From Cyanidioschyzon merolae (lineage: Eukaryota): 64,000 nt of DNA. The translations under genes and the position numbers were made by a program. The notes under the pieces were generated by a model. That model did not search any database and was not told where the DNA came from. It was given only the letters and a program-made list of their open reading frames with translations. Of the stretch, positions 10,375 through 59,060 are shown piece after piece (position 1 is the first letter of the stretch; each line of letters begins with the position of its first letter). The stretch lies in NCBI GenBank assembly GCA_000091205.1, contig AP006495.2; one strand, given 5' to 3'.

Positions 10375-10870
10375 GCTGAGGTATGGACATGGAGGTCGGG
10401 GATCCTGCAGGGCTGGTGTCCCCGGATGTTTGCGAAAAAACGACAGAAAAAATCCTCTTCCCTCCGGCCGTCGACAGAAGACGAGCAAGTGGCGACGACG
10501 AAGAAGAACAGGGCAGATGGGCGAAAAATGGTGTTTGCCCCACGAGACGATGCCGCAACTGTATTGGAAAAGAGGGCAGGAGTTCGAGGACTCCTTGCAT
10601 GGGTGCGCTCCACCAGATGCAATACATGCAAGGAGTTCCTGAACCGGGCCTTCAGCGCCGCCATCAATATCAGATGATGTGTGGTGCTGAAGACGAGACC
10701 CGAGGGGCTGAAGCGATCCAACTTTGTAGTGCAGTCTCTGATGCTCGAAGCGTACAAAGAGAAGCTGGAATCGATAGTAGACGCCCTGTCGACAAAGACT
10801 GGGACGTGTCTCCGGGTGGGTATTCATTTACCCCACATGTTCGTTGGGCAGTTTTTGTTTCACTGATCAG
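10375..10870 (+). mobile_element. 5'-truncated 3' fragment of a TnpB/Fanzor-like element (copy A)
   Basis: ...RAGVRGLLAWVRST...KEFLNRAFSAAINIR* at 10426-10677. This is followed by a conserved tail (MVLKTRPEGLKRSNFVVQ...YKEKLESIV) shared with copies at 28.2, 41.7, 52.4 and 58.8 kb. A 1-nt indel shifts frame relative to copy C. Confidence 0.6.
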
Positions 10871-13515
10871 GTGTAAGAAGACGGCTCTATATGGACAAGG
10901 TTTTTCTGACGCATTCGTTTTCGCGCAAGTCTTACTTCCAGCTTGGATACGGTCTCTCCCAGTTTCGTGATCACGTTTTGGTAGTCCCGTTGCTGACGTC
11001 GCATGTCGCGGCGGAGATTTTCTTCGTGCTCGCGCTGTTGGGCAAGTTCTACTTTGGTTTCTATCAGTTCCTGCAGGAGCGCGTGTTCATCAAACGACAA
11101 CGGGAGCACGTCAGCATTCACGGCATACGCTGTGACGCCGTGCGTACCAGAGGCTGCTTGTCCAGCGACCGCCGCTTTCTCGCCAATCTGGTTCAGCGTT
11201 GACTGCTGCGCCTGGATGGTGCAGCTGCTGGCCTTCACGTGAGCGAGACTGGCCACGACTGACGCCCACCATTGCTGCCACTGATCGATTGCTTTCGTAC
11301 AAGTGCTTTTCAGGAGCAAAAGCTCTGTTTTGAGCCTAAGGACTTGGTGACGGGGTCGCTGCATCCGGATCGAAATCCGTTCGGGAAGCGCTTCAGCGGG
11401 TGAAAACGATGCGGCATTTTGCTGCACGAACACATGCTGTGCCTTGTTTCGCTGAAGAGCGTGGTGCAGCTCCTGAAACCCTTGAAGCATGTCCTTTTCG
11501 AAGGCTTCCCACTGCAAGCGCCAGGCAAAGAGATGTGCTCGGCAGTCGCTGGTTTCTTTGGAGAGCTTCCGCGCGAGTGTCGTCTGCCTTTGAGTCACCC
11601 GCGCTAGACGACCTTCGACGCTCACGCGGCCGCGTTGCAACCGTTCGCATGCCTCTTGCGCTTGTTGCTGCATCTCGCCTTGAAACATATGCATCTTTTT
11701 TCGCAGATGTTTCAGCTCTACTTTCGCCTGCCTCAGGGTGGAGCAAATGGAATCGTTCTCGAGTCTGGGGTCTCGCTCAGATGGAACACACGCCATCGGC
11801 CGTGTTACAGACATAGAACGATGCCGTCGCAGGCGCTCCAGCAATCCTGCAATCTGAGAAGCTGTCAAATCGAAGCAATGCTCAACGTGCTGGTACAGCG
11901 CGGGCAGCTCTGTCCCGGATAAGCGCTGCAAGACAATTACCACTTTTCTCAGCTGGTGGCTGTATCGCTTCTGGAGAATCTGATCCCGCACTAGCACTGC
12001 ATCGGAGAGATCCTTGAGTTGCTTCCTCAGTGTCACCACGGAGGTAAGTGCGGGTTCCATGCCTCGGGCTAGCGGTGCTTGCGAGTTCGGGCCTTCGCCG
12101 AGGTCGCTCCTGGTCGGTTGAGACGTCCTCACAGAGCCAACTGCTCGCCCTGGAGGTTGCTGCTCGGCAAGCGCTACAGGATGTTGATGCTCGGATGCGG
12201 CCGAATGCGGTTGCAAGTGCGCCCGCATGACGGAGAGTTGATGAGAGAGTCCGCTCAGGGCAGAGACGAGTGATGCACACTTTTTCCAGGCCAGGGTCAC
12301 GGTTTCCGCCGTATCCATTTCGTCTCCGTTGATCTGTGGGGATGAGTTGGACGGGATCTCTTGTGCTACTCGCACTGTTTCATAGCCAGACTCGCTCTCT
12401 GATGCCAGAGGTGCAGTCAGCAGAGAAAGCGTACGAGCAAGCGCTGCTGCATGTGCTGCACACTGCGCAGTGGGAAGCGTGCGCTCCTCCTCTGGAGCTA
12501 TCCCGTTCGTTGTGCCGGGGGTTCTTGAGCTCGATGGTCGCGCCCCGTGGGTTCCTGTTCCTGCAAACGCGTCCTCGATGCGAACATGGCCTCCGCTGTC
12601 TTGGTCCGTCGCATATCGCGCGGATTTCTCTTGCGAGGCAGCAGTCGATGGTGACAATACCTGGGTGGCGCTGCTTGCTGATTTCCCCACGAGCGAAGCC
12701 GTCGAGATTGCCCCTTCCTTTTTCCCGAAGACTTGTTCATCTTTTCCAGGCGTCGATGGTCTCTCATCTGGACCGGAGACGGAGCTGCTCACTCGACGCT
12801 TCATCTCTGTTGCCGGGAGCGTCCCGGTCACCCCAGCATTTGCATGTCCATCAGTTGCTGAAGAGGTGGGTTCCAACACGACGGATGGCTGAACAGGCTG
12901 GGCATGCAGCTGCTCTTTACTGAGCGTCGACGCTTCGGCAGACGACTCTGAATCATCGGACCAGAGTGTCGACTCGACGCTCCACTGACTCAGCTCCGAT
13001 GGAGCATAAGAGGAGACGCTGTCACGAGATCCCGAAGGCAGCGCTGAGCCCATCCAGGACAGACAGACTCTAGCGAAGATCCGGGAACCATTGGATAGCA
13101 CGAAGACATGTTCGCGTTGAACACCACTACCGAGTTCACCCAAGAACATCACGAGGTCAAAGTGAACTTTCTCCAAAGCCTTCGACGAAAGTTCGGAACC
13201 ACGAGATGGTTGTCGTTTGCCGGGCGCTTGCCAAGTCAACAAACGCAGTTTGCAGTCCTTGGACTCAAACTTTCCGGTCTTGCGGTCTCTGTAAAGCGAG
13301 CAGATAATAGAAAGACTCTCAGCGAGCGCAACTCGTTGACCAGCAGGGTTTGTTTCGAACGGCTGACTGGTAGCCGTGCGAAGCCCGCGTTGCAGCTGCA
13401 GAACGACGGCGCGTTGACGCGGACTCCCTTGGAAGCCCACCAGCTGTACATCAAACTGAAAGGTCTGTCGCTCTTTTTGAAGTCTACTCGGGAGTTTGGA
13501 CACCCGACGGAACAT
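10867..13515 (-). CDS. NT-C2 domain (EEIG1/EHBP1-type N-terminal C2) coiled-coil protein, 882 aa
   Basis: Uninterrupted ORF. The N-terminus (QTFQFDVQLVGFQGSPRQRAVVLQLQRG...KDCKLRL) fits the NT-C2 pattern. Long predicted coiled-coil segments follow. Function unknown. Confidence 0.5.
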   Translation of the reverse strand: MFRRVSKLPSRLQKERQTFQFDVQLVGFQGSPRQRAVVLQLQRGLRTATSQPFETNPAGQRVALAESLSIICSLYRDRKTGKFESKDCKLRLLTWQAPGKRQPSRGSELSSKALEKVHFDLVMFLGELGSGVQREHVFVLSNGSRIFARVCLSWMGSALPSGSRDSVSSYAPSELSQWSVESTLWSDDSESSAEASTLSKEQLHAQPVQPSVVLEPTSSATDGHANAGVTGTLPATEMKRRVSSSVSGPDERPSTPGKDEQVFGKKEGAISTASLVGKSASSATQVLSPSTAASQEKSARYATDQDSGGHVRIEDAFAGTGTHGARPSSSRTPGTTNGIAPEEERTLPTAQCAAHAAALARTLSLLTAPLASESESGYETVRVAQEIPSNSSPQINGDEMDTAETVTLAWKKCASLVSALSGLSHQLSVMRAHLQPHSAASEHQHPVALAEQQPPGRAVGSVRTSQPTRSDLGEGPNSQAPLARGMEPALTSVVTLRKQLKDLSDAVLVRDQILQKRYSHQLRKVVIVLQRLSGTELPALYQHVEHCFDLTASQIAGLLERLRRHRSMSVTRPMACVPSERDPRLENDSICSTLRQAKVELKHLRKKMHMFQGEMQQQAQEACERLQRGRVSVEGRLARVTQRQTTLARKLSKETSDCRAHLFAWRLQWEAFEKDMLQGFQELHHALQRNKAQHVFVQQNAASFSPAEALPERISIRMQRPRHQVLRLKTELLLLKSTCTKAIDQWQQWWASVVASLAHVKASSCTIQAQQSTLNQIGEKAAVAGQAASGTHGVTAYAVNADVLPLSFDEHALLQELIETKVELAQQREHEENLRRDMRRQQRDYQNVITKLGETVSKLEVRLARKRMRQKNLVHIEPSSYT

Positions 13516-16500
13516 GAGGCTTTGCTGCTCTGCAGTGCACAGGTGGCTGCCCGAGTTCGCGTTCGGAACGGTCGCTGCGGCCGCGTTGCTTCGAGAACCC
13601 CAGAACGAACGGTGCTGAAGGCCCAGTGCCTGGTACAGGAACGCTGGGGTGTCCTTTTGTTCTGAGCAGCTGATCGGTGTTGCGTGATGGTACGAATGCT
13701 CAGGTAGGCTTCAAGTATGCATGTTTTGAACAAGCGTCGTTGAAGCGGCCTACAATAGTGAGCAGCGCAAGTTTCCGACGTAAAGGGCTCTTTCTGTTGG
13801 GCGGGTGCTGTTGCGAAAAGGACGTATCAGTTGGGACACTCTCAGCGTTCGGATTGTGTTGTTGCGAGGGATGTAAGGATGAAGCAGCGGTATAATGGTG
13901 TTTCGGTAGTAGTAAGGTGCTACATTCGAAGCAGGACAAAGCTAGTGAAGCCGTGTCGCGAGGAACGTCCGTTTTCACCAGGAGGATCGGTGCTCTACCC
14001 TACGAAGCGTTTGCATGAACTGTAGATCAGACGGCCACCAAAACCGAAGCATGCTGTCCGTAAAATGACGCTGAAATGATTGCAGGTCGACCACGTGGCA
14101 CGAATGGAAGCAGCACGGAATACAGAAGGACGCAACGCGTTGGATCTCTGTTCGACCTCCACAGCTGCCTCGTTGATTGTTCGTACGGTATCAACGGAAG
14201 CGACAAACAACTCGGATGACACTACACATCAGATCCGGAGGACATACCAGCACATATAGACCTGAACTTGAACGACACCTGTGCAGTGCCAACGTCAGAG
14301 ACTTGCAGCAAAAGAGGCGAGTACAAGACGCTTTGTCTCAATTGTGTATGGATATAACGAGGAAAGCGTCGACTTCCGCCGACGCATGAAATGCAAACAA
14401 CGCGTCCAGAAGCAAATGACATTGAATTGTTCTGCTGCATGAAGCACCGCACTTTTATCGTTTGCATAGCCTGCTTGTTGAGCTGCTTATGTCCGCGATA
14501 ATCACTGAGATGTAACTGTGTCAGAACCAATTCGGAAGCTTCTGCTTGGGTAACGCGGGCGTAGACGCTAGCATTTTCGGTTTCTTCATGCTGTCACCAA
14601 CAGCAGCCATGCGGGCTTTCCCCCGCGAAGCCAAGTCCGAGTCCCAGATACTTTTCCATGGAAACAGCAGGGACGGAGGCATCTGAAAGCATTTGCCGTC
14701 AGCGGTACCTTCCTGGGGTCGAATGATACTTCTTCGAATACTGCTTACAGAGTAGAATTCGGTTTTCGAATGGAATCGAATCTTGGACATGAGGTTCAGT
14801 GTATTTCGGCATGAGCTTGTGAGTAAGCCGTCAAGGGACGATATCTAGAATATTGAATGTCGACTATCCAGAGGCGTGAGCTGCTGTTTCCACCACTTAC
14901 CTCGAACAAGAAAGATCGAAAACTCGCAGATTGCGTGTTTTGAGCAGGCTACACGTAAGAAAGGAGAAGCTTGGAAGTTTCTATATTTGAGCAGGATGAT
15001 GATGTCAGTTACTTTACGAAACCCTGTTCAACGACTCTACGAATCATCTTGATTCAGGTGTCGCAACGAATTCCAGCGGCAAAACTTCGAAGGAGCCCAT
15101 TAAAAAAGACGCCCGATAATCCTGAATGTGCCTATGAATCCGTAAGCTCCCCTCTCCACTCTTCCATTGTCGATGCTGTGCAACTAAAATCTGGTCGGAA
15201 GAAAATGCATACAAGTGAAGAAAGCGAGTAGTCCAGTGTTCGGGATTAAACTGACGCCAGTGCCGTTGATGAGGCAGGCACTTACGCTGCCTATCCTCCT
15301 GTGCCTCTATATCTCTATTTATCTAACCATGCGTCTATGGACCCATCGTGAATTGAGTGCTTCGATCGATAAACAGTGCAATGGAATCGTAGAAGAACGT
15401 AACTGTTCACATATTGCCCCTGGAAAACCGCTTCCAGTCCATAGGTTTGACACTCCAGTCTCTTTGGTTTTTGAAGCAGACCATGCTAGTGCAGTGCACG
15501 AGGCGGAACGCCAAGGCGCTCTCTCTCCTGGCCTCTGATTCGGTTTTCAGCACAAGGTTCCGGCGTTGCAGTACACTGCCTACAATGAGTACAAGACGAT
15601 TCTTTCAAAAAATATAACTCTCGCACGAAATAAAGCCGCAGGGCGCCTTGGAAACACATTTTTTCTCTGTGCTCATCGAGATATTCATGTCGTAGTGCAG
15701 CAAGTGCGTGTTCGCAATGTTGCCGGTGGTGTCACACCAGGCACGCTTCTCGCTCTCCATTGTCTCGTCATCGAAGGTTCGGTCCGCTGCCCGTAGCGCA
15801 TCTCGCGCATCCGTATCTGTTTCACACGCTCCTTCTCGATGTGTCTCAGAGCGTACCTTTGCTCATGATGCGCGTGTATTGTCGTGAACGCATCCATGGG
15901 AATCGTCGAGCATCCACGCTAGACCACGGGAAACGCTCCCGTCGATGGAGCACGACTGCAGCCTCTGCGCGCTGCACGACGTCTAGAACTGCAGCCCAGC
16001 ACTAAGTGACGCGAGTTGTCCGTCATTCGCCCTTCCGTCTCATGGGCAAAAGTCACGAATGGACGGTTCTTGCCTCCGTACAACCGACATTGTTGCCGGA
16101 TGCAGCGCACGCTCGCCAACTCCTGTTCAAAATCGTTCGCACGAGACTTCCACGTTCCCGTATCCGATCTGAGGCAGAGCACCCCTTCAATGAGCACCAC
16201 TCGACGGGGCCGTGCAGGTTACCGCACACCTGGTACATCGGACACACCGGAGACAAGGCTTGCAGGGCGCTGCCTCACGAAGCACTTGATATGCACCTGC
16301 ATTTGCGTTTGGGGTTTGGTTTCGTCTTTTCTGGAAACCTGTGCTGTTGATGTTCCGATCGCCGGAGTGGTGCGGAGACGCCTCAACGTTCTCTAAGAAG
16401 CGGGCGTGTAAGCTTCTTACTCTACAAGCAGGTCGTGCGGCGTCATCTGCCCGACGGATCAGTTTTGTTGTCACACGAAGAGTTGATGGAAACCTTCCGG

Positions 16501-18513
16501 AGTGTCGTGGACAGCAGGCAGTCCTGGATCCGGAACCCCTGTGAGCCGTTCCTCGCCAAGGTCCATCAAGGCAAGGCAAGCGGGGCGGAGTCTTCTTCGA
16601 ATCAGAAGCTACGTGATCCCCAATGGCGCCTGCACCGCACGTTCGAGGAAATGCTCTCGCTTGTTGGGTTTTTCTATTGGAGCGAGGCCTAGCCACCGTC
16701 TCAGACGTATGGTTCCGCTCCAGCAGCTTCGCCTTCCTGTCCCTTGACGTCCTTTTCTCGAAAGCGTCTTGTCCTTCTCTGTCAGATGGGTTTCTGCTCG
16801 TTAGCCTTTCTGTGGTTGGAGTGACATGAATGCTGGCGCTGTGCCCCGTATCCGGTCGCTTTCCCCGACATGCAGACGCACGGGATGGAATGCAGTACGC
16901 AAACGCTCCTCTTCTATACATGTATATACGCTTTCTTTCGTATGTTTTCGTCCTCGTCTGCGTCGCGAGCACGACCGCCGACAGCCGCGCGCGTTTCCGC
17001 TCCTTCCTCCGCTCACATGAAGAAGCAACTGCGCAATTCAGGGTTCGTGAAGCTAGTGAACGACTCGCTCAAGAACGATGCCACAGATACAAAAAACTCG
17101 TCTATTGATCCGTCAGCGCCTCACAGCGTTTGCCAACGTAGAAGACGTCTTCGACGGGATCGAATCAACGAGAATAGGCAGGCACCACGAGCAGTCCAGC
17201 ACCGTGCCCAGCTGCGTGCTCCTTGACCCAGTACGAGGGACAGATACTGACGTTGTCTCACAACAGCACAGATGAATTTACGAACGAGAGGCCACAAAGT
17301 GTTTCCACGGAGGATCAGCTCATGGGTGATCCTGTCGGATAGGCGGTTTACAGGTGATACCACAATCGCATCTTCGCTTGTGTTGATCCCGCCGTCATGC
17401 TCGCTTGTCTCTTCGCTACGAACTCCGATTCGCCCCATTATGACGAGCAACATATAACTCTACCATTTGTCGACCATGAATTCTCATCGTGTGAAACGAA
17501 AACCCACCGCTCCTATCATAAGCGTTCCCGTCTCCGTTCGACATCCATCGTGTGTGTTGCAGACGAGCACTGGTCCCCTACAAGGGCGAGCTTCTTTCTC
17601 GTTCATCCGCCTCGCGTCATTATCTTTCGTATCAATGGTACGGAAACTTCACATCCTGTACCTTCTATGACAGTATATCGAATGCAATGCACACCGTGGA
17701 ATGGATCTACGAGCAGAACGTCCTGATAATACAGCTCGACAGATTCCGCTTTTGATGCGCTTTCAGCATCAGGTATGCGAGAAGCGTGCATCATCCATCC
17801 GCTGACTGCGGAGTAAATCTCTCGTACAAGTGAGGCTGTTTTTTCGCAAAGCGTCAATGACAACATAACGTCATTCTGCCACCTCTGTCTCTCTCCAAGC
17901 AACAGGACACATGCTTTCTGTTAAACACCTGCCAGAGGAACACAGAAAATCATAAACAGCATGCTGACGCACGTGTTCTGGACACAGGTGCTCCTAGGAT
18001 TACGCTGCCCCCGCATGACGCAGGAAGTGAACTCGCGATGCCGCCGCAGTTACATCGCAACGCATCATGCGTTCCCGATCATCGATCCGCATACATGGGG
18101 TCTGCCTCGTACACGCCCTGACCAGCTACGAGTTGACTGCACGAAGAACCATTCAGGTCGGTACCACAGAGCAGCCATTTTCCCAAGTTCCGCTGGAACC
18201 TCCCTTTACCGCACTCAAAATGCCGAAGCTCCTGTTTTGTCTCGCTGACGCATTGGAACGGAAAGCGCTTGTACGCATCTGGTGCATCAATCATCGTTCA
18301 TCGCGGCTGATGCTACCAAGTCACTTTCCTAAACCGGGGCTGACCGCACTCAAAAGCTACCTTACCTGTGAGATTCTGCAGAAATGCATGGAACGGGACC
18401 AGATCACGGCTCTGTTGCCGTCCCTACACATATACGATAGCTGACGCTTTGCTTGTCACTGACAAAGGTTGCGCGTCATCATCTCCCATTCCGCACTCGT
18501 CAAGCAGCGAAAA

Positions 18514-19574: not shown

Positions 19575-21117
19575 CATAGCAGACATACATGGAACGGGCC
19601 CACAGCGCTCAATCGGGCGTACACACGAAATGCGGAGCATCTCGTATTTGTCATGAACAAATGACCCGGTAGGCCTCTTCCGACACAGCGTACTTGCTCT
19701 CGTTCGCACCTCGGGATTTTTGGACACGCCAGTCTCTCTGGACCCCGCAGTTCCACGGTCTCCCGTCGAAGGATGCTCGTGGCAGCGCCCGAGTCCCGAT
19801 CTCACAGCTGCCGGCTGTTGTCGATGCAGTTCATCCACCGGCGAGACTTGCAATCCATGCTTCGCTTGCCAGCTTCGTCTTCTTCGAATACAGCGCCGAT
19901 GCGCTTTGCGCAGCGGTCGCACTCGACTGCTGTTGTCGGGTATCCCACATGTCCAGCGCACACCCGTCACCGAGTGCAGCGCTGTGCGGCGTGAAGGACT
20001 CCTCCAGTGCTCGGTGCACGCCCCTGACGAGTACAGAAGGCGTCGCTCGATGCCGTGCTCCGTTGCCGCGCCCGGTACCGTACACTGTCGTCACGAACTT
20101 GTTCAGGGCGATCCCCTCGGCGAGTACGCTGTCCGCGGCAGACGCAAGCGAAGGCTTCTGCATTACGCAGAGGATCTGTGAAACGCGGTGCTGTCCGTGA
20201 TAGAGCACGGAGCAGACGGAAGCTTCACACTCGAGAAGTCGTCGACATACTCCGAGCCGTTTCCGATCCCTGGTTGCAAAGCGGTGACACAGGCTCCGCT
20301 GGAAGCGAGTGCCGGGAGAGCTGGTATCCGAGTCCGAGACCGAGCACCCATGGACGGGCAGGAGCCGAGCACCCGTGGACGGGCAGGAGCCGAGCACCCA
20401 TGGACGGGCAGGAGCCGAGCACCCATGGACGGGCAGGAGCCGAGCACCCGTGGACGGGCAGGAGCCGAGCACCCGTGGACGGGCAGGAGCCGAGCACCCA
20501 TGGACGGGCAGGAGCCGAGCACCCATGGACGTCCGTGCCCTGTGGGGTACCGTGCTTGCGTCGAACGCCGTCTCAGCGGTGTTAGCAAGGAGCCGGGCGA
20601 TATGTCTCCTCGGCCGAGTTCGACGCTCTGACTTGCGAAGTACGGTGAGCGATCGGCTCGAGCTTGTGAGCAAGTCGTTAACGGACGGCGTCGACGAACG
20701 TTCCGAAAGCGTCCAGGTGCTTGAGGTGGCGCGCCCACTGGGTTGCCTCGGAATAGCAAGATCGAAAACCTGAAGATTGGATACTCGGAGCGGGCTGCAA
20801 GTGAAGATAGAAGAAGAGAGGCGTCTAGCGCGTATGCATACAACGGTAGTATCGATTCGTTTACGATGCCTTGTTCGCGGGTGTCCCGAATCGTCTCGAT
20901 TCTGGTGACGTAACGAGTTGCAGCGGCACATCGTTGAACGTGTCGCTCCGCGAGAAAGAAGAACCACCGACCTAGAATCCTGAGAGTGTATACGAATCCG
21001 TAAGCATTTTATTGGTGCTCCATGAAAGTCAGCGCTTTGCATCTGAACAAGTTCAGAGGGAAATCTAAATGCAGGAACAGGGTGTGCAGTTCTTTTGTAG
21101 ACTTATATCTGACGCGG
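19575..21117. repeat. Segmental duplication, copy 1 (about 1.54 kb, direct orientation)
   Basis: Near-identical to 26608-28175, with a few SNPs and one extra 25-bp unit in copy 2. The coordinate offset is 7033 before the minisatellite and 7058 after it. Divergence points were read directly at both ends. Confidence 0.9.
20338..20530. repeat. 25-bp minisatellite, about 7.7 units (ccgagcaccc[a/g]tggacgggcaggag)
   Basis: Direct reading. Because 25 is not a multiple of 3, all three frames give a 25-aa periodic pseudo-peptide (EHPWTGRSRAPMDGQEPSTHGRAGA), explaining the overlapping ORFs. Confidence 0.9.
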
Positions 21118-41925: not shown

Positions 41926-44900
41926 GGTGTGTGCTTTAAACGCCAAGCTTGTTTCGCTGCTTTTTTTTTGAAAACTCGACCATCGCTGGGACCCAGCACT
42001 GGCAAGGATCAATGCCGTGTGTCTGCGAACGCTCTGTCCTCTAAAAGTTCGTGGTTTCGTCTGGAAATCCAAACGAGCTTCCGTCACGGGCGGGGAACGT
42101 GTCACTCGCTTCGAAGAGGTGAACGCCGTGAACCAGAGGACGGAAAACGGTGCAAGCTTCCTATGGGAGGCGCTTTCGCTGCATACGCCATGACTCAGGC
42201 GCTCATTCTTCCCGGGAGCTCTGCTTTTATCAAAATACCACCGTACGCGAACAACCGCACGACCAGTACGTACTCGAATGGAGCAAGCTGCGTTGCCAGT
42301 CGCCGCCACTGTCGGTTTTTGGGAGCCGGCTCAGGCCGGAGCCGCGCCTTGACTGCGTTTCTGGTGAAGCAGCAGTGCTGTCGCTGCGTCGACAGTTTGC
42401 GGCGCGCACAGACAGCTAAGCGCTCACCTGGTGTCGCTGCGATCCGTCTCGCGACCGAGTCCCCGGAACAGGACCCTGTTCTTGACTGGCTCCGCAAAGA
42501 GCTCAACGACGAGCAGTTTGCAGCCGCGACGGCGCCCGTTGACGCTCCAGTTTTGGTGATGGCTGGCCCCGGATCAGGCAAGACGCGGGTTCTCACTTAC
42601 CGAATGGTGTACCTCATCATCAAAGAACTCTTCAGGGCAAGGCACTTATTGGCGGTTACGTTCACGAACAAGGCTGCTGATGAGATGCGAGCACGCGTGA
42701 TCGACCTACTAAAGTCGCGACAAGGCACCGAAGTGGAATCCTCGCACAGCGTTCCCACTGTTGGTACGATTCATTCGGCCTGTTCGCGCATCTTGCATCG
42801 GTTTGGCGCAGTCATGGGCATTAGCTCCAAGTTTAACATCTATTCCGAGTCGGATGCTAAGCGGCTGCTGCACAGGATCCTCGAAGAAAATGGCGAAACG
42901 ATGATTGACCCGAAGAAGATTGCGTTGTTCGCCGCGCTTCTCTCCGAGATGAAGCAGGAACAATTTTGCGCGGAGTTTGGTTACGAGCCGTCGCCCTCTA
43001 GGTCGCCGGCCTATGATGCTCGTGGCATCACTGCATACATGGTGGAACGCGCCAAAACCCTCCTTCCGGTGTACCAGTCGGAGCTGCGACGGCTTGGGGC
43101 ACTCGACTTTGATGATTTGATCCTGGAGGCGGGACGCCTGCTTCGGAATCACCCGGCCATTCGTCTGGAGCTCCAGAAGCAATGGCAATACATCATGGTA
43201 GATGAGACTCAGGACACCAGCCAAGCTCAGTATCATGTAATTCGATTACTGGCTGAAAGAAAACGTGAAACAGAGAAGTATTTCCCGTTGTTTCTTGTGG
43301 GTGATCCCGACCAAAGTATCTATGGATGGCGCGGGGCGGACATGCACGCTGTTCGGCGTTTTCGGGATTCGCTACCGGAAACCCGTGTCTACCTATTAGA
43401 GAACAATTACCGCTCGACGAAAGCAATTGGAGATCTAGCACAATACGTCATACAACAGGATCGTGAACGGATACATCCAGAGAAACGCATGCGTACGCAG
43501 CTAGAGGGCGAACATCCCGTTCGCTTGGTCTTTTGTAGGAACAGCAAGTCGGAAGCTGAATTCGTGGTCAAGCAAATTCGAGAACTCGTCGCACGCCACA
43601 AGCTCTCTGGTCGAGATATCGCCATCATGTACCGAACAAACGTTCAAAGCCGTACGCTCGAGGAAGCCTGCATACATGCCGGTGTGCCGTACGTCTTGGT
43701 TGGCGGTCTGCCCTTCTACGAGCGGCGCGAGGTCGCAGACATGCTGGCCTGTTTGAAGCTGCTCCTCCACGAGGGCGATACAGCAAGCTTTGAACGGGTA
43801 TTGAGCTTTGCGGTCTCCGGCATTGGCAAACGAACGACCGCCGCATTGTACGAATGGGCGAAACACCTGAACTGCACACCGATCGCGGCACTTCGGGCGC
43901 TCAGCAATGTCGATGCGGATACACCAATCGTTTCCAAAGCGATACCGAGCGTACCGCGCTCGCTGCCCGTGCATGAAACCCCAGCGGTGGACGAAAACGC
44001 CTCCAACGGAACCCGGGGTGCAGCTGAACTCGAGACTACCCCGACTTTGACCGATGAACAGGTGGCCATGCTGGGTGTCACTTCGCGGAAACGCAAAATC
44101 TTGCTCAAGTTTTTGGAGATGTATGAGCGGTGGAAGAGATTACTGCGAACACCTGTGGCCGAGATGAGCCGCAGGTATTATGTGCTTCCACTCATGATTA
44201 AGACAATTTTCGCAGACACGCAATACGAGGAATACGTCCGCAAGCAAGCGCTCCACGGACCCGCTGTCAATGAGGAGACCAGCGCTCTTCGCGTCCAGGA
44301 GCGTCTAGAGAACGTCGTTGAACTCGCACGAGCCGCCTCCACAGCCGAGGAGCTCTGCCTGAAGAGGGGTGCTCAAACGGCCGGCGACGTTCTCGTGACC
44401 TTTCTGCATGAGGTTGCACTTGTGCATGGCGCTAACCGCGACGAGAACACCCCGAAAGATGCATTCGGCTGTGTGAATCTCATGACGCTGCACGCGAGCA
44501 AAGGTCTTGAATTCGAAGCAGTTTTCATCGTTGGTATGACGGAAAGTCTTCTGCCACACAAGCTGTGTCGTACCCGAGAGTCACAGATCGCGGAGGAAAG
44601 GCGGCTGGCATATGTCGGCTTGACTCGCGCCAAGCGCCACCTGACAATCACCTGGTACCCAAATGGCTCCGAATGGCTCTCCCGGTTCCTCCTGGATGCA
44701 CCTGACGAACTCGTCAGTCGACACTGCGCCCGGGATCTGATGAAAGGTCGCCTGGACCCCATTCCACGTGAAGAATATACGCTGCGGTGCAAGCAAGCAC
44801 ACGCGGGCAGCAAGGAGCCGGTACGCATCGGTGACATAGACGTACTGGGAGAAGTGAAGGCCAGGAGCAGGGCGGCGGAATCGAAACGAGCACGTGTCCA

Positions 44901-45066
44901 GGCAAACGCGGACTCCAAACTAGCCGCTGGGGTTTTTGTAAGGCATTCAAAATATGGCAAAGGTATTGTTGTCAAGAAACTAGACGGTACACCGCTCGTT
45001 GTCGTGCGATTCTTCGAGCAGCGCGGGACAAAGGCTGTTCCTGGAAACTTCTTGGAGCGGCTCTGA
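41791..45066 (+). CDS. UvrD/PcrA-type superfamily-1 DNA helicase (bacterial architecture) with an N-terminal extension of about 200 aa
   Basis: Walker A is VLVMAGPGSGKTRVL. LAVTFTNKAADEMRARV and the helicase motifs follow, ending ...LTRAKRHLTIT.... The C-terminal HSKYGKGIVVKK...VVVRFFEQRGTK resembles the UvrD/Rep C-terminal domain. The annotated start lies next to a TE fragment and is uncertain. Confidence 0.75.
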   Translation: MTRRTRPRGVCTSVGDFLSRARFLATTAHRRRRRSTARGVRRCTRGVCFKRQACFAAFFLKTRPSLGPSTGKDQCRVSANALSSKSSWFRLEIQTSFRHGRGTCHSLRRGERREPEDGKRCKLPMGGAFAAYAMTQALILPGSSAFIKIPPYANNRTTSTYSNGASCVASRRHCRFLGAGSGRSRALTAFLVKQQCCRCVDSLRRAQTAKRSPGVAAIRLATESPEQDPVLDWLRKELNDEQFAAATAPVDAPVLVMAGPGSGKTRVLTYRMVYLIIKELFRARHLLAVTFTNKAADEMRARVIDLLKSRQGTEVESSHSVPTVGTIHSACSRILHRFGAVMGISSKFNIYSESDAKRLLHRILEENGETMIDPKKIALFAALLSEMKQEQFCAEFGYEPSPSRSPAYDARGITAYMVERAKTLLPVYQSELRRLGALDFDDLILEAGRLLRNHPAIRLELQKQWQYIMVDETQDTSQAQYHVIRLLAERKRETEKYFPLFLVGDPDQSIYGWRGADMHAVRRFRDSLPETRVYLLENNYRSTKAIGDLAQYVIQQDRERIHPEKRMRTQLEGEHPVRLVFCRNSKSEAEFVVKQIRELVARHKLSGRDIAIMYRTNVQSRTLEEACIHAGVPYVLVGGLPFYERREVADMLACLKLLLHEGDTASFERVLSFAVSGIGKRTTAALYEWAKHLNCTPIAALRALSNVDADTPIVSKAIPSVPRSLPVHETPAVDENASNGTRGAAELETTPTLTDEQVAMLGVTSRKRKILLKFLEMYERWKRLLRTPVAEMSRRYYVLPLMIKTIFADTQYEEYVRKQALHGPAVNEETSALRVQERLENVVELARAASTAEELCLKRGAQTAGDVLVTFLHEVALVHGANRDENTPKDAFGCVNLMTLHASKGLEFEAVFIVGMTESLLPHKLCRTRESQIAEERRLAYVGLTRAKRHLTITWYPNGSEWLSRFLLDAPDELVSRHCARDLMKGRLDPIPREEYTLRCKQAHAGSKEPVRIGDIDVLGEVKARSRAAESKRARVQANADSKLAAGVFVRHSKYGKGIVVKKLDGTPLVVVRFFEQRGTKAVPGNFLERL

Positions 45067-46698: not shown

Positions 46699-46822
46699 GG
46701 GTTACAAGAAGGCTGCGTTTGGAAGGGCGCAGCTAGCTTGTGCGCGTTTCGAAATCGGCAAACGTCGAGGGGAAATCGAATGCGTGTCGCTAGGCCGCGC
46801 GCGTCCGTGCACTGCGGAATAG

Positions 46823-52405: not shown

Positions 52406-53327
52406 TCAGCTCGATGATGGGGCAAACTTCGCACGAACCAGCAAGAAACGCCGTTCTAAAGTAGAACGTCGTCGGCGGTGTACAGTAGTAGCGACCGGTG
52501 CGCCTTGGACACCAAGTCGCCTACTGACGTGCAGACGCTTCCTAGGCTTTTTCGACCGGCCGCCTACTACTGCTTCCAATTGTGTCTCATATAGTAAAAC
52601 CTTAAGAGGTTGTCCAACAAAATTCTCGCGTGTCATCTCTGGAGGTCTCGTCTCCAACACCGCACATCTCCTTATATTGATGGCGGTAATAAAATCTCGG
52701 TTCACAAAATCCATCCGTTTCGTGCCGTTGGGAGTTGTACTTACTAATGCAAGCAGTCCACGAACTTTCGCTCTCCTTTCCATTTGCTCTTCCGTCAGCT
52801 GTCTATACTTTGCTATATCCTCAGGGCTCCTCTGGCACTTTTCCATCTCGACTCTCTGAAGTGTTAACCCCTGTTCATGGTGTGTGTGCTATGTTCGAAA
52901 CTCAACTACAGGTATCGTAACGAAACGCCTTGCACACTCCTTGTACATTCTTGTCGTTGGAGCTGGTGTAGTGCCTTTCTTGGGCACCCATCGTCCTGCT
53001 CCGTACGCTACGACGAGCCTCTGACTTTCCTCCTCCTTCAGGGCGCTCAACTCATTCAAAAAATTCGCGAACGCCCGCTGCCTCCCACCGTATAGATTCA
53101 TTCGCAAACGAGCCCACGGGGGTTGGTATACTCCTCCCATAGCGCATCCCGGTGCGCCATATGCGAACTTCCATGAATTTCCGGACAGCTCCAAAGTCCG
53201 CTCCTCGGCTCGTCACCTTACTCAAAGCTTCCGGGCGATCCTTCATTCCTGCATTCCGTTTCTCGATTTTCTTCCTCGCATTCATGATTCCCGATTCTCG
53301 ATAGTATCTCGCTCTCGAGATCCTCAA
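52406..53327 (-). pseudogene. Frameshifted C-terminal half of the Fanzor/TnpB-like protein (RuvC-II-like, zinc-finger, RuvC-III and C-terminal tail)
   Basis: Three different minus-strand frames (ORFs 53052..53327, 52889..53194, 52406..52846) are needed to read it. Together they are homologous to copy C. Confidence 0.65.
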
Positions 53328-54703
53328 AAAAGACGCATGTCTTTCTGACGCAAGTTACCATCAGCACCATCTTCCGTACGCTTCGGTGCTACGATGGTTA
53401 TGATATTCGTATTCCCAGGGTCCGCGCCAACGACAAGGTCGTTATCCTGCACTTTCTGCGCGGCAGGATCCTCCTCCTTCTCATCTTTATGCATCGCCGC
53501 GCCAACGACAAAGTCGTTAGCTTGCACCTCCTGCGTCGCAGCATCCTCCTCTTTGTTTTCTTCATGCTTCGCCGCGCCAACGACAAGGTCGTTATCCTGC
53601 GCTTTCTGTGTCGCGGGACCCGCCTCTTTGTTTTCTTCATGCTTCGTGACGGGCGCAGCCGATGGAGGGACTGGACGATCTTTCTTCAACCTCCGATAGT
53701 GCACACACATGGCTACTCCATCGGGTTCGATCAACCCAGTGAATACCTTTTGTTTGCTCACTTTCAGACGTTTGAAATCGAAGATGCTCATCCAGTACGT
53801 CTCCCGGTTTCCGCCGGTGAAGTCCTCCCTGCTAACATCGAACTCCGGACAGATATCCCTCGTGATGCCGTAAAGGATTCTGGAGTTGATAGTCACAAAA
53901 TGTGACTTGATCTTGCACATTGGAACCACGTTGAAGTGCTTCCCCATTAGGACAGCCTTCCGTCTCTCCCACTCTTCCTTTGACTCTTCACTCAGCTTCA
54001 TCTCCGCTTTGCGTTCGAGCTCTCGGTCCAGAAACACAAAATAGCGCAGAACGAGGCGATCGTATCTTTCCCTATCTTTTTTCAACGCTGATATCTTGTC
54101 TGTTGGATTCGCCAGCCCCAGTACCGTACGATGCTCTTCGATAACCGCACGGATGACGGAATTCTCATTCGTGCTCTGGTTTGACTCCTTGTTGTCAACG
54201 AATTCGACCTCATTTCCATAGTTTCGATCGTTCGTGATGCCATTGATAATCGCCCATATTCCTTTGCGAGACAGGCCCCGGTAGAGTGCAAACACGGCGC
54301 GTATCATGAAACGTTCGAGGTTCATTCTGAAATGGTTCTTCAGATTCGTCAGGTACTTCATCGCCCCATATGTGTAGATATCCGCGTCACCCCTGTATTG
54401 GGTACCCTCGAAGAGGAATTCCGCGAAGTTTTCGTGGAGGACTTTCACCCGCTCATTTTCCCTCCGCGCTTCCTCTGTACCAAGCATCAGCTGACGAATA
54501 AAGGTCTTATCGAAAAACTCGTCCGGAATCTCGACCGTTTCCATGTTCGTCACGTAGAGGTACATCTCCTTCACCAAATGCATCAGTCCTGAAGATGCCT
54601 TTATCCTACTCATGGGGTACAACTCGAGAAGGTTTTTGATGGCCTCTCGCAACTTTTCCTTGTACGGATCCTTGATATATTTAAGAACACAGACTTTCAC
54701 CAC
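53324..54703 (-). CDS. Intact 459-aa ORF encoding the N-terminal (REC-like to RuvC-I) portion of the Fanzor/TnpB-like protein
   Basis: Uninterrupted ORF of lower GC. The C-terminal [15 protein letters not shown] matches the TnpB/Fanzor RuvC-I (hGhDxG) pattern. It contains a 3 x 25-aa tandem repeat just upstream of that motif. Confidence 0.65.
53422..53650. repeat. Tandem repeat, 3 x 75 bp, inside the Fanzor-like ORF (encodes [25 protein letters not shown] x 3)
   Basis: The ccgcgccaacgacaa(g/a)gtcgtta.. units start at 53422, 53497 and 53572. Confidence 0.85.
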
Positions 54704-55199
54704 TATCTCGTTGTACAGTTGTCTTTCTTGCCGCCTTCGACGTAGAACCTCCCCCTTTTTGAATCTTCATCACTTCCTGTTCCTCTTTGCTCCGCCTTGT
54801 TTATCTTTTTTTCCGGCAGCGGGTGATATCGGCCCTCCGGGATCCTCCACTTCCATTTCCATGACTTTCCTTTTAATTTTTTGAAAACGAACGCTCTTTG
54901 AACGCTTCTGTTATATACTTCGAAAAAACACTTGAATATACTCAATTGAGGGTCGGAATAGGATGGAACAGAAAACCTATACTTTGCTACGACCTCAACG
55001 CGAATACAACTTTTACAGTAGAATAGCACGCCAATGATCAGGATCACTGTTCCCCTCAAGAGCGACCAGAGCGTCGTGTCTCGTGCCCGCCGGATCTGCC
55101 AGGTGCGCGTGCACGCGCAGCGGCTGACCTGCGCCCCGCCGCCGATCAGGAGATTGCTTCTGGATATGTCTATCTCAAAGCGTGATAACCTGTTGCTGA

Positions 55200-57086: not shown

Positions 57087-57670
57087 ACCAAGGGCAACAT
57101 CCGCGATCGACACAGCGCTCTGCAAGTTGAGCGCGACTCGTGTGCTTGCCAATGACCGGGCTTGGAGTCGCAGCGGAACCTGCTCCTCAGCTATCAGGTG
57201 CCGTGGACCTGGTCGGGATCGGTAGCATCTACACTCGTGCAGTCCAAGCGTCAGACAGCACCGTGCTGAAAACAAACGCCTACTTGGCGCGCTTGTACGA
57301 CAGGACGCTGTGCAGAAGCATGTTTGGTGTCGTTTTCGACGATCTGAGGATCGATGCAAGGTGCGTCTTCGAGGAAGGCATGCTCGGACGGCAAAACTTG
57401 GGTACCAAGGGCACTTCGATGCCTGTTCGCATCGATCGCTGGTATGCTGCGTATCTGGTAGAGGCGAATACCGTACATAGAGGTACGCGCTCGTGCGTCC
57501 GTTCACCGTCTCGATCCGCTGCTGGTACGCGGCTGCGTTAGAATTTCGAGTACCCGACGCTGTTACGACGTAGAGGCGCTTCTGTTGATAGTCTTTCAAC
57601 TCAATTTTGTTTCATCGCGGCTACGGTATATAGGAGGAGGACGAAATCACTAGGTAATGTTCTGTATAGA

Positions 57671-58165
57671 TTGTCGACGAATTGCATACGGCATATGTAT
57701 TCTTCACTGAACAATGCAATGATGATTGCATTGCTCCTCGATGTCAACCATACTGCTATACTCAGATGCTTGACGAGCACTGAAAGAAACAAGTATATGC
57801 GCTCCGGGCCGAAACCTGATATTCTCAAAGCCTGCTTGCAATCAGTGATAGAAAACGACCAGTTGATCAATTTAAGGGAAGCAAATGCGTCCATAGTAGC
57901 CACCACGGGCGTCTCTGTTTCTCAACAGCTTATTCGCGTGATCCTGAAAACACCGGGATCCAATCGCAATAAAGTGCTAGTTCATTCACGGCCAGCTTCC
58001 ACCGAAATCGCAGGCACGGTGTTCCTGGAACGTCGCGATCGGTATGAAGCACAGGAACATCAGTTTGTTTTCTCACTCGATGAGACTTGCTTCAAACGAG
58101 ACAATCGCAGTGCAGATGAATACTTGCTGAGCGGGAGCCCGTTGCACGTACGCTCGAAATCGTAG
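57671..58165 (+). pseudogene. Possible fragment of a Tc1/mariner-type (HTH plus DDE_3) transposase
   Basis: An HTH-like segment (REANASIVATTGVSVSQQLIRVILK) is followed by ...QEHQFVFSLDETCF, reminiscent of the Tc1/mariner W..V.FSDES.F block holding the first catalytic Asp. The region is AT-richer and directly adjoins Fanzor-like fragment E. Weak. Confidence 0.3.
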
Positions 58166-58544
58166 AGAACGTCGACATCATCATCTGTTCTAGCTGCGGT
58201 GGATTCATTTGGCTGCCTCAGTTCCGCTGAAGAGAACACTCATGCAGCAGCGCCCTCTTTTTGTCGAGTCATCGAAGACTTGTCCCAAACGTCTGGTGAA
58301 GTCCTTCTATTGGACATAGTGGTATTTAGCCATTCTGCTTCAGTTCGAGCATTTGCCAATTCTATCGACGGGTAGAGCTGGTTTCATTCCTTCTTCTCAC
58401 CTGTGTTTCATTCCCATAGAAGGAGAGTTTTGCGTCCTGAATCGTCACGACCGCTCCACCGGGCGAATAGATGAAGCGTTCAGCACATGGTGACCAACCG
58501 GGGCACATTTGGTCTTTATTCCGCATGTGCTGCTCGATGCGGGA

Positions 58545-59060
58545 AGGTCGTCATCTCAGGCTATAAACAAGTGCGTTCATTTTCGAAAAATCTAAGGGAC
58601 GAGCTGGAATATACACCCTAGGATGTTGAGTTGGAGCGAGGCCAGCGGAGCGTTTCGTCGACGGATCAGCACGAAGAGCTGACAGAGCACCCAATGGCAC
58701 AGCGTGCACGAGTTCGTGGTCTCCTATCATTGGTGAGATCAACCAGCGGCAACAAACGCATGGAGTCCATGAACCGAGACCTCAACGCTGGTATCAATAT
58801 CAGGAGATGCTTGTGCTGAATGCGAGGCACGCAGCGCTGCGGCAAGCTAACTTTGTTGGGCAGCCTCACAGCGTCGGAGTGTATATGGAGAAACTGAAAC
58901 CGATACCAGAACCCTGTAAGAAAAGGCTGAGAGACGTCTGCGGGTGGATATTCATTTACACGATATTGTGGCGAAACGGGTTTGCTGCACTGACGTAACG
59001 TTGTTCGCTTCGGCATTCGCGCTGTTATCTGCTCCCGAGCAAACCGCGAAAAGCAGGCAA
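58545..59060 (+). mobile_element. 5'-truncated TnpB/Fanzor-like fragment (copy E)
   Basis: ...VELERGQRSVSSTDQHEELTEHPMAQRARVRGLLSLVRSTSGNKRMESMNRDLNAGINIRRCLC* is followed by the conserved tail (LVLNARHAALRQANFVGQPHSVGVYMEKLKPIPEP). Confidence 0.6.

Follow-up and report, generated by a model that had tools for sequence, protein, structure and literature searches.

The repeats in the window (the whole 64,000-nucleotide stretch analysed here) belong to a Cyanidioschyzon merolae family of Fanzor1 transposons, Fanzor1 being a TnpB-like, RNA-guided nuclease. We consider it probable that the family includes ORF-less derivatives, formed by internal deletion and amplified, and that its constant 3' end represents a right-end cis region and possibly the scaffold of an omega-RNA. 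The window is nuclear DNA of C. merolae 10D, and its proteins match 10D entries exactly. As modelled, the encoded protein has the Fanzor1 fold: the model of an intact relative (40% identical; pLDDT 88) matched solved Fanzor1 structures with E values of 1e-15 to 1e-17 and TM scores of 0.55–0.69. By description, the family is the one that Nozaki et al. (2007; PMC1955436) reported as a "253-copy novel interspersed repetitive element", with units of 3.2 kb and an ORF resembling WSV486 of WSSV. It is probably also CMe-1A of Bao & Jurka (2013; PMC3627910), equated likewise by description; CMe-1A was given as a C. merolae element of ~3 kb in ~150 copies, without TIRs and with TSDs that were not determinable, and the same paper lists one Fanzor1 in white spot syndrome virus. 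This published element resembles the window copies in its host, its size of ~3 kb, its lack of TIRs or recognisable TSDs, its high divergence and its Fanzor1/WSV486-type ORF, and the short repeat associated with it, TE-N2_CMe, is also met here. Our analysis, too, identified neither a transposase nor TIRs or TSDs in this family. Both papers (PMC3627910, PMC1955436) describe long copies and TE-N2; neither describes derivatives without an ORF (A-type, 0.6 kb; E-type, 1.4 kb), the separate tails of the old and young subfamilies, the terminal hairpin and the architecture of constant 3' and variable 5' ends.

The window copies, lettered A–G and counted as seven to eight, fall into three ages: an ancient copy (G), an old subfamily (A, B, E and F) and a young subfamily (C and D). 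They were compared with copies in ~0.96 Mb of related contigs from related strains, at loci chosen for carrying a Fanzor copy. A reading of the window made from its sequence alone had described a dispersed family of 5'-truncated copies sharing the 3' end, and its description is borne out in part. Pairwise blastn matches far beyond chance joined A to E (71.5% identity, E 3e-33), A to B (69.6%), B to E (67.9%) and C to D (81% over 651 nt, E 2e-176) at the places where that reading had put them, and the division of A, B and E from C and D holds both by identity and by type of tail. All copies run through an NRDFNAAINI-type RuvC-III motif into a common tail, and the tails are conserved in dozens more copies in related strains. 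To the five copies of the sequence-only reading we add F and G, and we place D, for which it gave no coordinates (Table 1).

Table 1. Fanzor1 copies and associated features in the window, with the matches and landmarks that delimit them.
Feature	Position	Strand	Description	Matches and landmarks
Copy A	10265..10866	+	ORF-less A-type mini element, ~0.6 kb, old subfamily	5' motif ACTTTCACCTCAATTG... begins at 10265; 5' block 10265-10503 (nhmmer 10266-10503 = profile 230-449) joined to separate 3' block 10564-10866 (nhmmer 10564-10813 = profile 2424-2676); 3' end TTTTTGTTTCACTGA, 10852-10866
Old-subfamily tail (as in A)	10820..10866	+	From alignments of 12 old-type copies	GGGTGGGTATTCATTTACCC..., then GTGAAAC/GTTTCAC-type hairpin, terminal ...TTTTTGTTTCACTGA
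Copy G	~15550-16770	-	Remnant of an ancient Fanzor copy, highly degenerate and internally deleted; aa ~30-170 joined to ~490-end	tblastn (queries P0046/P0049/P0001) 16770-16468, 16465-16307, 16125-15730; translation with GDRNI..S.G, RLYGGKNRPF, IPMDAFTTIHAHHE and RuvC-III remnant HYDMNISMSTEKKCV
Copy B	28196..32404	-	Full-length old-subfamily element, 4.2 kb: ~1 kb 5' region, degenerate ORF remnants, tail and nested unrelated repeat	tblastn aa 1-396 at 31382-30058, aa 506-752 at 29096-28284; nhmmer matches to profile 307-1630, 1713-1835 and 1837-2676; 5' terminus ~32404, set by five E-type copies all beginning there
Nested repeat in B	29350..30040	-	~0.7 kb, probably TE-N2_CMe; interrupts B ORF between aa 396 and aa 506	~650 nt 5' segment of long-form young copies matches window 29987-29527 (blastn); aligned with solo and attached copies
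Copy F	38830..39414	-	Second A-type mini element, built like A	blastn match 38867-39120; nhmmer 39183-39414 = profile 232-451, 38883-39119 = profile 2434-2676; 3' end GTTTTGTTTCATTGA, 38844-38830
Copy C	~41165/41245-41918	+	Young subfamily, aa ~575/590 to element right end	tblastn aa 575-752 at 41163-41741; nhmmer 41245-41916 = profile 2098-2766; in-frame stop TAG (in TTGTCTAGGGCG) at 41846-41848; terminal hairpin CACACCGCCGGCG...GGCGTTCGGCGGTG, ends 41918
Young-subfamily non-coding tail (as in C)	41849..41918	+	From alignment of 39-47 non-redundant copies; candidate right end and omega-RNA scaffold	Small GGCG...CGCC hairpin, ACUACUGYA linker, long terminal hairpin CACC...GGTG
Copy D	52432..55122	-	Element of the young subfamily, 2.7 kb and nearly full length, with two frameshifts and several stops	ORF 53324..54703 = N-terminal 459 aa; nhmmer 52439-55122 = profile 80-2769, score 2979; tblastn aa 13-752 at 54760-52613; terminal hairpin 52448-52472; element end 52432
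Copy E	57592..58993	+	ORF-less E-type derivative, 1.4 kb, old subfamily: entire ~1 kb 5' region (57592-58583) joined to 3' block (58599-58993)	5' motif TCTTTCAACTCAATTTTGTTTCATCG at 57592; blastn 57590-58583 = B 32404-31419, 58634-58942 = B 28561-28251

The 5' ends require a different account of the family, since 5' truncation describes copy C only. Copies A and E, which had been taken to start in the zinc-finger region (A at 10375), carry 5'-terminal element sequence ahead of their 3' blocks; both ends are thus retained, and what was lost is internal. Copy B, also read as 5'-truncated, is full length, as its N-terminal half and a 5' region reaching 32404 demonstrate; the internal deletion proposed for it is real, with QRLVAV fused to (P)IAVFRTS and ~30 codons lost. 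The 5' boundary of B, E and A is marked by a motif, TCTTTCA(A/G)(C/T)TC..TTTTGTTTCA, which the young copies have conserved as well; the match in A-type copies is imperfect (19/26 in A), and 5' boundaries are fuzzy.

The junctions of the short copies were shared among loci. Copies A and F and the locus L049 have the A-type junction in common (profile ~450|2424-2434), and its 3' side is found in L027, where the 5' block extends to ~512; the flanks of these four copies are unrelated. The E architecture was also found in L055 and L065, where, as in E, the 3' block begins at profile 2329-2332, while L011 is an ortholog of E. One further copy, L021b, combines the entire 5' kb with the A-type junction, which suggests a stepwise derivation of the ORF-less forms. 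Shared junctions at unlinked loci in related strains indicate that the ORF-less derivatives were amplified after the deletion had occurred. These observations bear on an alternative, an improbable one in our judgement, in which a compact genome loses sequence by random deletion, all parts of the elements decay evenly, and fragments appear to keep the 3' end because the RuvC-III region is the most conserved and hence the most recognisable. The RuvC-III motif was indeed how the copies were first spotted, the ancient pieces G, L004, L039, L040 and L047 are detectable over the RuvC-II-III region only, and, relative to B, the 5' kb of E-type copies has diverged as much as the 3' block (67–72% versus 68–71%), implying no differential constraint. 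However, independent random deletion cannot produce shared junctions at unlinked loci, and sensitivity was adequate, since tblastn readily found the N-terminal part of B and G at ~30% identity. In addition, the only 5'-only or middle-only copies met with a DNA profile of the whole element were at contig ends, and beside A, F and C there is not enough intergenic space to conceal a decayed remainder.

Preferential retention of the 3' end, as the sequence-only reading proposed, holds. The 3' block, composed of the final ~60–120 codons and a 60–85 nt tail ending in a hairpin, is the only part kept by every window copy and by every recognisable non-seed copy in the related contigs, and the last ~170–400 bp are kept in all 22 recognisable copies. 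Fragments of the 5' end alone were absent from the window and the ~0.96 Mb of related contigs, except at contig ends. Such a pattern might also arise if copying generally started at the 3' end of the element and often stopped early, whether by one-ended rolling-circle (Helitron2-like) transposition, by homology-directed copying that begins from the right flank once Fanzor has cut and then aborts, or by target-primed reverse transcription. The rolling-circle mode has been proposed for the Chlamydomonas Fanzor1 elements CRe-1/2/3, and CRe-1 provides a precedent for "5'-truncation or 3'-overabundance" (Bao & Jurka 2013, PMC3627910). Copy C, the sole truly 5'-truncated copy in the window, with neither a 5' block (nhmmer) nor a TE-N2 segment (blastn) upstream, fits this mechanism, as do two head-to-head 3' blocks in L036 and one in L045 that lack 5' sequence, so that a 3'-anchored process may play a residual part. 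The element also has a hairpin at its 3' terminus and no TIRs, with TSDs not assessable in copies so diverged, and its constant 3' end contrasts with heterogeneous 5' ends: young copies have at least four different 5' modules, and TE-N2_CMe occurs upstream of about half of them, as well as solo and nested in B. As a general cause we nevertheless regard 3'-anchored copying as unlikely. Copies A, E and F possess 5' terminal sequence and common internal junctions, B and D are full length, and true truncation affects one among the seven to eight window copies. The excess of 3'-only over 5'-only pieces (~5 to 0) is a weak signal (binomial ~0.03–0.06). The family copies showed neither poly(A) nor RT linkage, and no microsatellite tail apart from the hairpin arm; no Rep/helicase gene was noticed in the window or loci, short of a systematic search.

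We favor instead a series of events in which internal deletion of the ORF would have produced A, E and F, leaving the 5' terminal motif and the last 250–400 bp, and these forms would then have been copied to new sites without an ORF. They would form a non-autonomous class that can be compared with the "ghost" Fanzor loci of Spizellomyces, with the protein presumably supplied in trans by intact copies, and the 3' block would be the part needed by any derivative that is mobilised or maintained. Most likely the block carries right-end signals acting in cis, and by analogy it may also hold the omega-RNA scaffold, in which case the guide would be read from the DNA just past the element end, as in characterised Fanzor1 and TnpB systems. 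The location of an omega-RNA at the 3' end, raised by the sequence-only reading, is reasonable by comparison with Spizellomyces and Chlamydomonas. Folded copy by copy, the young tail averaged -27.3 kcal/mol in sense and -21.7 kcal/mol in antisense (mean z -1.56), the sense strand of the terminal hairpin being 5.6 kcal/mol more stable than the antisense, and stems of at least five unrelated sequences are found at this one hairpin position. On the other side, the 3' 400 nt of both subfamilies gave next to no consensus structure or covariation in RNAalifold, conservation of synonymous or third codon positions was not raised in the last 100 codons, and the 3' region had no match in Rfam. The terminal hairpins fit a DNA-level signal for single-strand transposition, Helitron- or IS200-like, as well as they fit RNA.

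The ghost loci of Spu-1 in Spizellomyces punctatus are ORF-less, ~550 nt long and keep both element ends, and the ~80 nt between the stop codon and right end of Spu-1 encode a functional omega-RNA (Saito et al. 2023, PMC10432273). The C. merolae derivatives share with them a short, ORF-less form with both ends, the ghost loci outnumbering ORF-bearing copies, and the post-stop tail of 60–85 nt is similar in size. In contrast, inverted repeats of 30 nt and a CA/TAM motif are found in Spu-1, whereas the C. merolae family lacks TIRs and its derivatives, which are ancient (65–72% identity), keep 170–400 bp at the 3' end, part of it once coding. Solo fRNA copies are reported for Chlamydomonas CrFNuc-1 (Jiang et al. 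2023, PMC10530073). The CRe-1/2/3 elements, as non-autonomous Helitron2, resemble the present family in that nearly all copies are 3'-intact, with 5' truncation and internal deletions. Extra stand-alone copies of the 3' RNA region and a hairpin near the 3' end are further points of resemblance to the Chlamydomonas elements. The CRe copies, however, are young (up to 98% identical), with Helitron2 termini, TSDs of 7–19 bp and insertion after TTTT; these features could not be shown in C. merolae, where most short copies are internal deletions that keep the 5' motif. The C. merolae forms also resemble the PATE/MITE-like derivatives of bacterial IS200/IS605 TnpB elements in being protein-less forms that keep both ends, with a terminal hairpin and no TIRs or TSDs identified. 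These bacterial derivatives have left and right ends with subterminal hairpins and a right end that overlaps the omega-RNA, and are mobilised by Y1 TnpA; to our knowledge they have no TIRs or TSDs. Unlike them, the C. merolae family has no transposase partner that we know of.

Retention of the 3' block could also have been imposed after insertion. The sequence-only reading had allowed for selection on whatever the 3' end encodes; nothing points to it, given the equal divergence of the two parts of E-type copies. A related and highly improbable explanation is that the block was kept for the benefit of neighbouring host genes, for example as a promoter/5' UTR or a terminator. The 3' ends of B, F, C and E do lie 100–500 bp upstream of host ORFs on the same strand, and the terminus of A abuts the stop codon of a convergent ORF. 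Yet tandem orientation in four of seven copies is the chance level at one gene per ~2.7 kb, the 3' blocks diverge at the same rate as the remainder of the element, and the block is also present in full-length copies and in many unrelated contexts.

The dispersed copies in the window are best explained as members of a known Fanzor1 transposon family whose ORF-less deletion derivatives have been amplified with both ends kept. When the reconstructed protein of copy D was used as query, 50 relatives were found, mostly in hot-spring metagenomes. Against Pfam and NCBIfam, the D protein and its relatives had no informative match; the lone signal was a weak one to Pfam PF07282 in the distant relative P0050 (E 0.0085). 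The family profile likewise matched no sequence in the PDB. Where sequence profiles gave almost nothing, Fanzor1 identity was settled by a fold search with the AlphaFold model (pLDDT 88, pTM 0.85) of P0046, an intact relative 40% identical to D. The model matched SpuFz, PpFz and GtFz over the full length (E 4.5e-17 to 5e-15, TM 0.55-0.69), the next structural matches after these Fanzor1 structures being Cas12f, Cas12o and Cas12i, and its predicted bilobed REC/WED/RuvC/TNB fold resembles that of the solved Fanzor1 structures. The Fanzor motif, D-X(125-275)-[TS][TS]-X-X-[zinc finger]-X(5-50)-RD (Bao & Jurka 2013, PMC3627910), was found as D...TS...RD in the family consensus and in the relative P0001, both of which carry GADPGNTNI, then after ~150 aa DEFRTSYTHHELGC..EKC, and after ~45 aa more NRDFNAAINI. 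The zinc-finger positions of the family read HH...C...C rather than C4, and in copy D a stop codon replaces the Ser of RTS.

Two further features of the proteins were observed. An acidic tandem repeat of ~25 aa lies directly before the RuvC-I motif in copy D and in P0001-P0004, and is present in 2 to 5 units depending on the family member; the insertions of the TE-N2 repeat in copy B and in the related metagenome locus L012 fall in this region. A large family of ~600-aa relatives (P0096-P0214), 38-47% identical to P0050 and in many cases carrying the precomputed Pfam tag PF26935, is encoded on many metagenome contigs of ~2-4 kb, as expected if each contig were a repeated ~3-kb element assembling alone.

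The family itself is already known from two published descriptions. A 3.2-kb "novel interspersed repetitive element", transcribed and present in 253 copies, was described in C. merolae, its truncated ORF resembling WSV486 of WSSV (Nozaki et al. 2007, PMC1955436), and one Fanzor1 has been listed in white spot syndrome virus (Bao & Jurka 2013, PMC3627910). The latter study also described CMe-1A of C. merolae, with ~150 copies of ~3 kb, without TIRs and with TSDs that could not be determined. The window family shares with CMe-1A its nuclear C. merolae host, a Fanzor1/WSV486-like ORF, its size (2.7 kb in D; 4.2 kb in B, including a 0.7-kb nested repeat) and the lack of TIRs, and it is probably CMe-1A and the C. 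merolae interspersed element, an assignment made by organism and published description.

The sequence-only reading had described a family of 5'-truncated copies that all keep the 3' end. Self-comparison recovered homologous copies at each of the places concerned (A-E 71.5% identity, E 3e-33; A-B 69.6%; B-E 67.9%; C-D 81% over 651 nt), as well as D at about 52466-53109 and the unlisted copy F at 38867-39120. Translations likewise bore out the NRDFN(A/P)AINI motif with a common C-terminal tail, and the internal fusion in B of QRLVAV to PIAVFRTS. The shared 3' block is real, but the truncation is mostly wrong: only copy C is without 5' sequence. Anatomy was established by tblastn with full-length relatives, by a DNA profile built from 36 non-redundant full-length copies, and by blastn against B. 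By these comparisons A, B and E do not start at internal points: B is full length, and A and E retain 5' blocks. In E, 57592-58583 matches B 32404-31419, and 58634-58942 matches B 28561-28251. The 195-aa ORF in A, which begins at the old Fanzor start codon, was rejected as a gene, because it crosses the 3' block in another frame and is not kept in F. The ancient remnant G is nearer to the distant relatives P0046 and P0049 than to the main family, and a 261-aa ORF overlaps it.

Coordinates of Fanzor copies and associated features (window positions unless a metagenome locus is named)
Feature	Position	Strand	Description
Copy A	10265-10866	+	5' block (profile ~230-450) joined to 3' block (profile 2424-2676)
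ORF in copy A	10383..10970		195 aa
Copy B	32404-28196	-	full-length old element, 4.2 kb, ~1 kb 5' region
Copy B ORF, N-terminal half	31382-30058	-	
Copy B ORF, C-terminal part	29096-28284	-	
Repeat nested in B	~30040-29350	-	~0.7 kb, between aa 396 and aa 506
Copy C	~41165/41245-41918	+	sole window copy without any 5' sequence
Copy D	55122-52432	-	near full-length young copy, 2.7 kb
Acidic repeat, copy D	53400-53640	-	~25-aa units
Copy E	57592-58993	+	~1 kb 5' region joined to 3' block
Copy F	39414-38830	-	built as copy A; 3' block from profile 2434
Copy G	~16770-15550	-	ancient remnant; internal deletion joining aa ~170 to ~490
ORF overlapping G	16187..16972		261 aa
Segmental duplicate, left	19575-21117		1.57 kb, direct
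Segmental duplicate, right	26608-28175		1.57 kb, direct
ORF in left duplicate	19831..21042	-	~400 aa, function unknown
ORF in right duplicate	27258..28100	-	~400 aa, function unknown
Tandem array, left duplicate	20336-20531		25-nt repeat
Tandem array, right duplicate	27369-27589		25-nt repeat
Solo nested-type repeat	L008 6413-6920		
Solo nested-type repeat	L023 2020-2544		
Solo nested-type repeat	L025 14186-14762		
Solo nested-type repeat	L059 5246-5693		
Old-type 3' block	L036 5043-5268	-	begins at profile 2441
Old-type 3' block	L036 5405-5655	+	begins at profile 2427

One metagenome scan, with a trimmed 3-sequence alignment as query, yielded 80 loci (~0.96 Mb) from C. merolae-like strains, and copy classes were counted without the copies that had seeded the search. 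Besides full-length elements, these loci hold copies of the E-type (in L055, L065 and, as two variants, L021) and of the A-type (L027, L049), and 3'-only blocks (two in L036, head to head, and one in L045). The young copy in L012 is truncated at profile ~1790-1829, with a TE-N2 insertion close to the 5' end of the copy. No 5'-only Fanzor pieces were found in the 80 loci except at contig ends. The A-type junction, joining profile ~450 to 2424, is common to window copies A and F and to L049, with L027 sharing its 3' side, and the E-type 3' block begins at profile 2329-2332 in window copy E, L055 and L065; the copy L021b combines the full 5' kb with the A-type junction. Loci with common junctions have unrelated flanks and keep the 5' motif and the 3' tail. 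The same junctions amid unrelated flanks indicate that successive deletions, each followed by copying, are likely to have made the ORF-less derivatives. LINE-type 5'-truncated retrocopies were rejected, as there is no poly(A), the junctions fall into discrete classes and the short copies keep 5' sequence; the GT-rich sequence at the 3' end belongs to the terminal hairpin, as its 3' arm, and is not a simple-repeat tail. A 3'-anchored truncating mechanism may contribute to copy C, L036, L045 and the variable 5' modules of young copies, although it is not the main pattern.

Other observations were made on these loci. Both L036 blocks begin at the A-type breakpoint and have no 5' blocks; they lie 137 bp apart in what looks like a palindrome. 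Weak and very old internal fragments occur in L004, L039, L040, L047, L052, L020 and L035, and were dismissed as a "third family", being too decayed, with mutual matches of just 150-350 bp at ~67-70%. A search for empty and filled orthologous sites that would define termini and TSDs yielded a single locus syntenic with the window, L011 (97.6% identity), which has the same insertions. L011 matches the window from 63898 down to 53456, and synteny breaks inside copy D, which could mean that Fanzor copies have undergone ectopic recombination or gene conversion, or that the metagenome assembly is chimeric at the repeat.

The two ends of the element differ in character. The old family starts with TCTTTCAACTCAATTTTGTTTCATCC (at B 32402 and E 57592), which is matched 19/26 at A 10265, is recognisable in F and L049, and is also conserved within the 5' region of the young family. 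Young copies have common sequence from ...CGCGCTCGGTGAGCGCACCTGGGAGATC onward, and the recurrent modules upstream of it are of at least four kinds, a TE-N2-like repeat among them. The 3' end, unlike the 5' end, is uniform. In young copies a small GGCG...CGCC hairpin comes after the stop codon; next are the linker ACTACTGTA and a terminal hairpin of ~19 bp (CACC...GGTG), after which similarity among the copies ends; the old-family tail ends ...GTGAAAC-N-TTTTTGTTTCACTGA. No inverted repeat links both ends in A, D or E. The 5' flanks are somewhat T-rich with no fixed TTTT, neither a hairpin nor an ATIR was demonstrated at the 5' end, and the copies, at 65-80% identity, are too diverged for TSD scoring. 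A short direct similarity, TTTTGTTTCA, was noted between the old-family 5' motif and 3' terminus (57604-57613; 58979-58993; 10852-10866); the occurrence at the 3' terminus is the 3' arm of the GTGAAAC/GTTTCAC hairpin.

Folding of the tail copy by copy gave a mean of -27.3 kcal/mol in the sense and -21.7 in the antisense orientation, and a mean z-score of -1.56 against shuffles, with 16 of 47 copies below -2. The position of the terminal hairpin holds at least five unrelated stem sequences. Together with the fold energies, this suggests that what is maintained is a hairpin as such, in the sense orientation. RNAalifold on MAFFT alignments (young tail, n=39; old and young 3' 400 nt, n=64; each subfamily alone) found almost no consensus pairs or covariation in the tail or the 3' 400 nt of either subfamily; the hairpins differ in register and sequence, so covariation cannot be exposed by sequence alignment. 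Third-codon positions in the last 100 codons had no raised conservation that would point to an RNA overlapping the ORF end, and the 3' block had no Rfam match. In E-type copies the 3' block is conserved no better than the 5' kb, which argues that its retention reflects what was copied rather than selection after insertion. The constant 3' block is most likely the right-end region of the element. By analogy with TnpB and Fanzor, it is also a plausible candidate for an omega-RNA scaffold, and the hairpin may just as well act in single-strand transposition, as a signal in the DNA. A role of the tails as host promoters or terminators was rejected because the orientation of the copies is as chance predicts.

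The closest analogue of the C. merolae derivatives is the set of Spizellomyces "ghost" Spu-1 loci, 134 ORF-less elements of ~550 nt that keep both ends (Saito et al. 2023, PMC10432273). Like these, the A-type and E-type elements have both ends, no ORF and several copies per short architecture; unlike Spu-1, the C. merolae family has no TIRs shared with the ORF-bearing element. In Chlamydomonas, solo copies of the fRNA number 20 (Jiang et al. 2023, PMC10530073), and its CRe-1/2/3 Fanzor1 elements were described as having "5'-truncation or 3'-overabundance" (Bao & Jurka 2013, PMC3627910). A Helitron2-borne element of the CRe-1 type would be expected to have hairpins at both ends, short asymmetric TIRs, insertion after TTTT, 7-19 bp TSDs at truncated copies and a Rep/helicase partner. 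The C. merolae family shows a 3' terminal hairpin; TSDs and Helitron2 ends were not demonstrable. The subfamilies of Mucor MCi-2 have common 3' ends and unlike 5' regions (Bao & Jurka 2013, PMC3627910). The family in C. merolae conforms to the pattern of the Spu-1, Chlamydomonas and MCi-2 elements.

A bolder reading, in our judgment rather unlikely, is that C. merolae holds a large and ancient set of ORF-less Fanzor guide modules that carry an omega-RNA in the 3' block and are copied from an anchored right end. The modules would be the short A-type and E-type elements together with solo 3' blocks; the constant 3' block would encode an omega-RNA of ~80-300 nt, with host DNA just past the element as guide; and constant 3' and variable 5' ends would arise when RNA-guided cuts are followed by copying that has its anchor at the right end. 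If this were true, C. merolae would be a natural system for testing what Fanzor does in a eukaryote for its transposon.

Fanzor activity has been demonstrated in vitro and in heterologous cells; to our knowledge, these demonstrations do not extend to the way in which Fanzor serves its transposon in eukaryotes. ORF-less elements with ends only, and possibly a guide RNA, are the type of evidence that has been brought forward in favour of trans action and homing. C. merolae offers efficient genetics by homologous recombination, and its 16.5 Mb genome is complete. Our finding is mostly confirmatory, as the literature already has the family, the retention of 3' ends by other Fanzor1 elements and the ghost loci of another species, and its main value is that the ORF-less derivatives add a tractable host with a finished genome. 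It also corrects the picture of the main C. merolae repeat family, in which shorter derivative families and nested repeats stand beside the published ~250 long copies.

The repeat nested in copy B is foreign to Fanzor. About half of the young Fanzor copies also have it immediately on their upstream side, and solo copies of it occur in four related loci. It is probably TE-N2_CMe, which was described as the 5' 635 bp of CMe-1A (Bao & Jurka 2013, PMC3627910).

The window is ~55% G+C, with about one intron-less gene per 2.7 kb, host gene models being ORFs only. Five long ORFs have eukaryotic housekeeping domains (ELP3, Sgf11, UvrD-like helicase, M16 peptidase, WD40), and three window proteins, among them BAM80969 ELP3, are identical to C. 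merolae 10D entries on the 866,983-bp chromosome. Rfam and tRNA scans of the window gave no matches. The Fanzor family and its nested repeat make up ~18% of the window (~11.7 kb of 64 kb); the genome-wide share of the repeat family is ~5% (Nozaki et al. 2007, PMC1955436). Several copies abut or overlap host ORFs. The terminal TTTTTGTTTCACTGA of copy A (from 10852) ends at 10866 and adjoins the stop codon (10867-10869, - strand) of a convergent 882-aa ORF with an NT-C2 domain, so the host 3' UTR must run antisense through the element. The 5' edge of copy C (41165-41283) overlaps the first ~40 codons of an ORF at 40084..41283 (-), and its tail (41791-41918) overlaps the UvrD-like helicase ORF (41791..45066) in an upstream extension that begins with GTG; both host ORFs probably have their true start codons outside the element. 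The 1.57-kb direct segmental duplication (97.9% identity) flanks both sides of the Sgf11-like and ELP3 genes, and its right copy stops ~20 bp from the 3' terminus of copy B.
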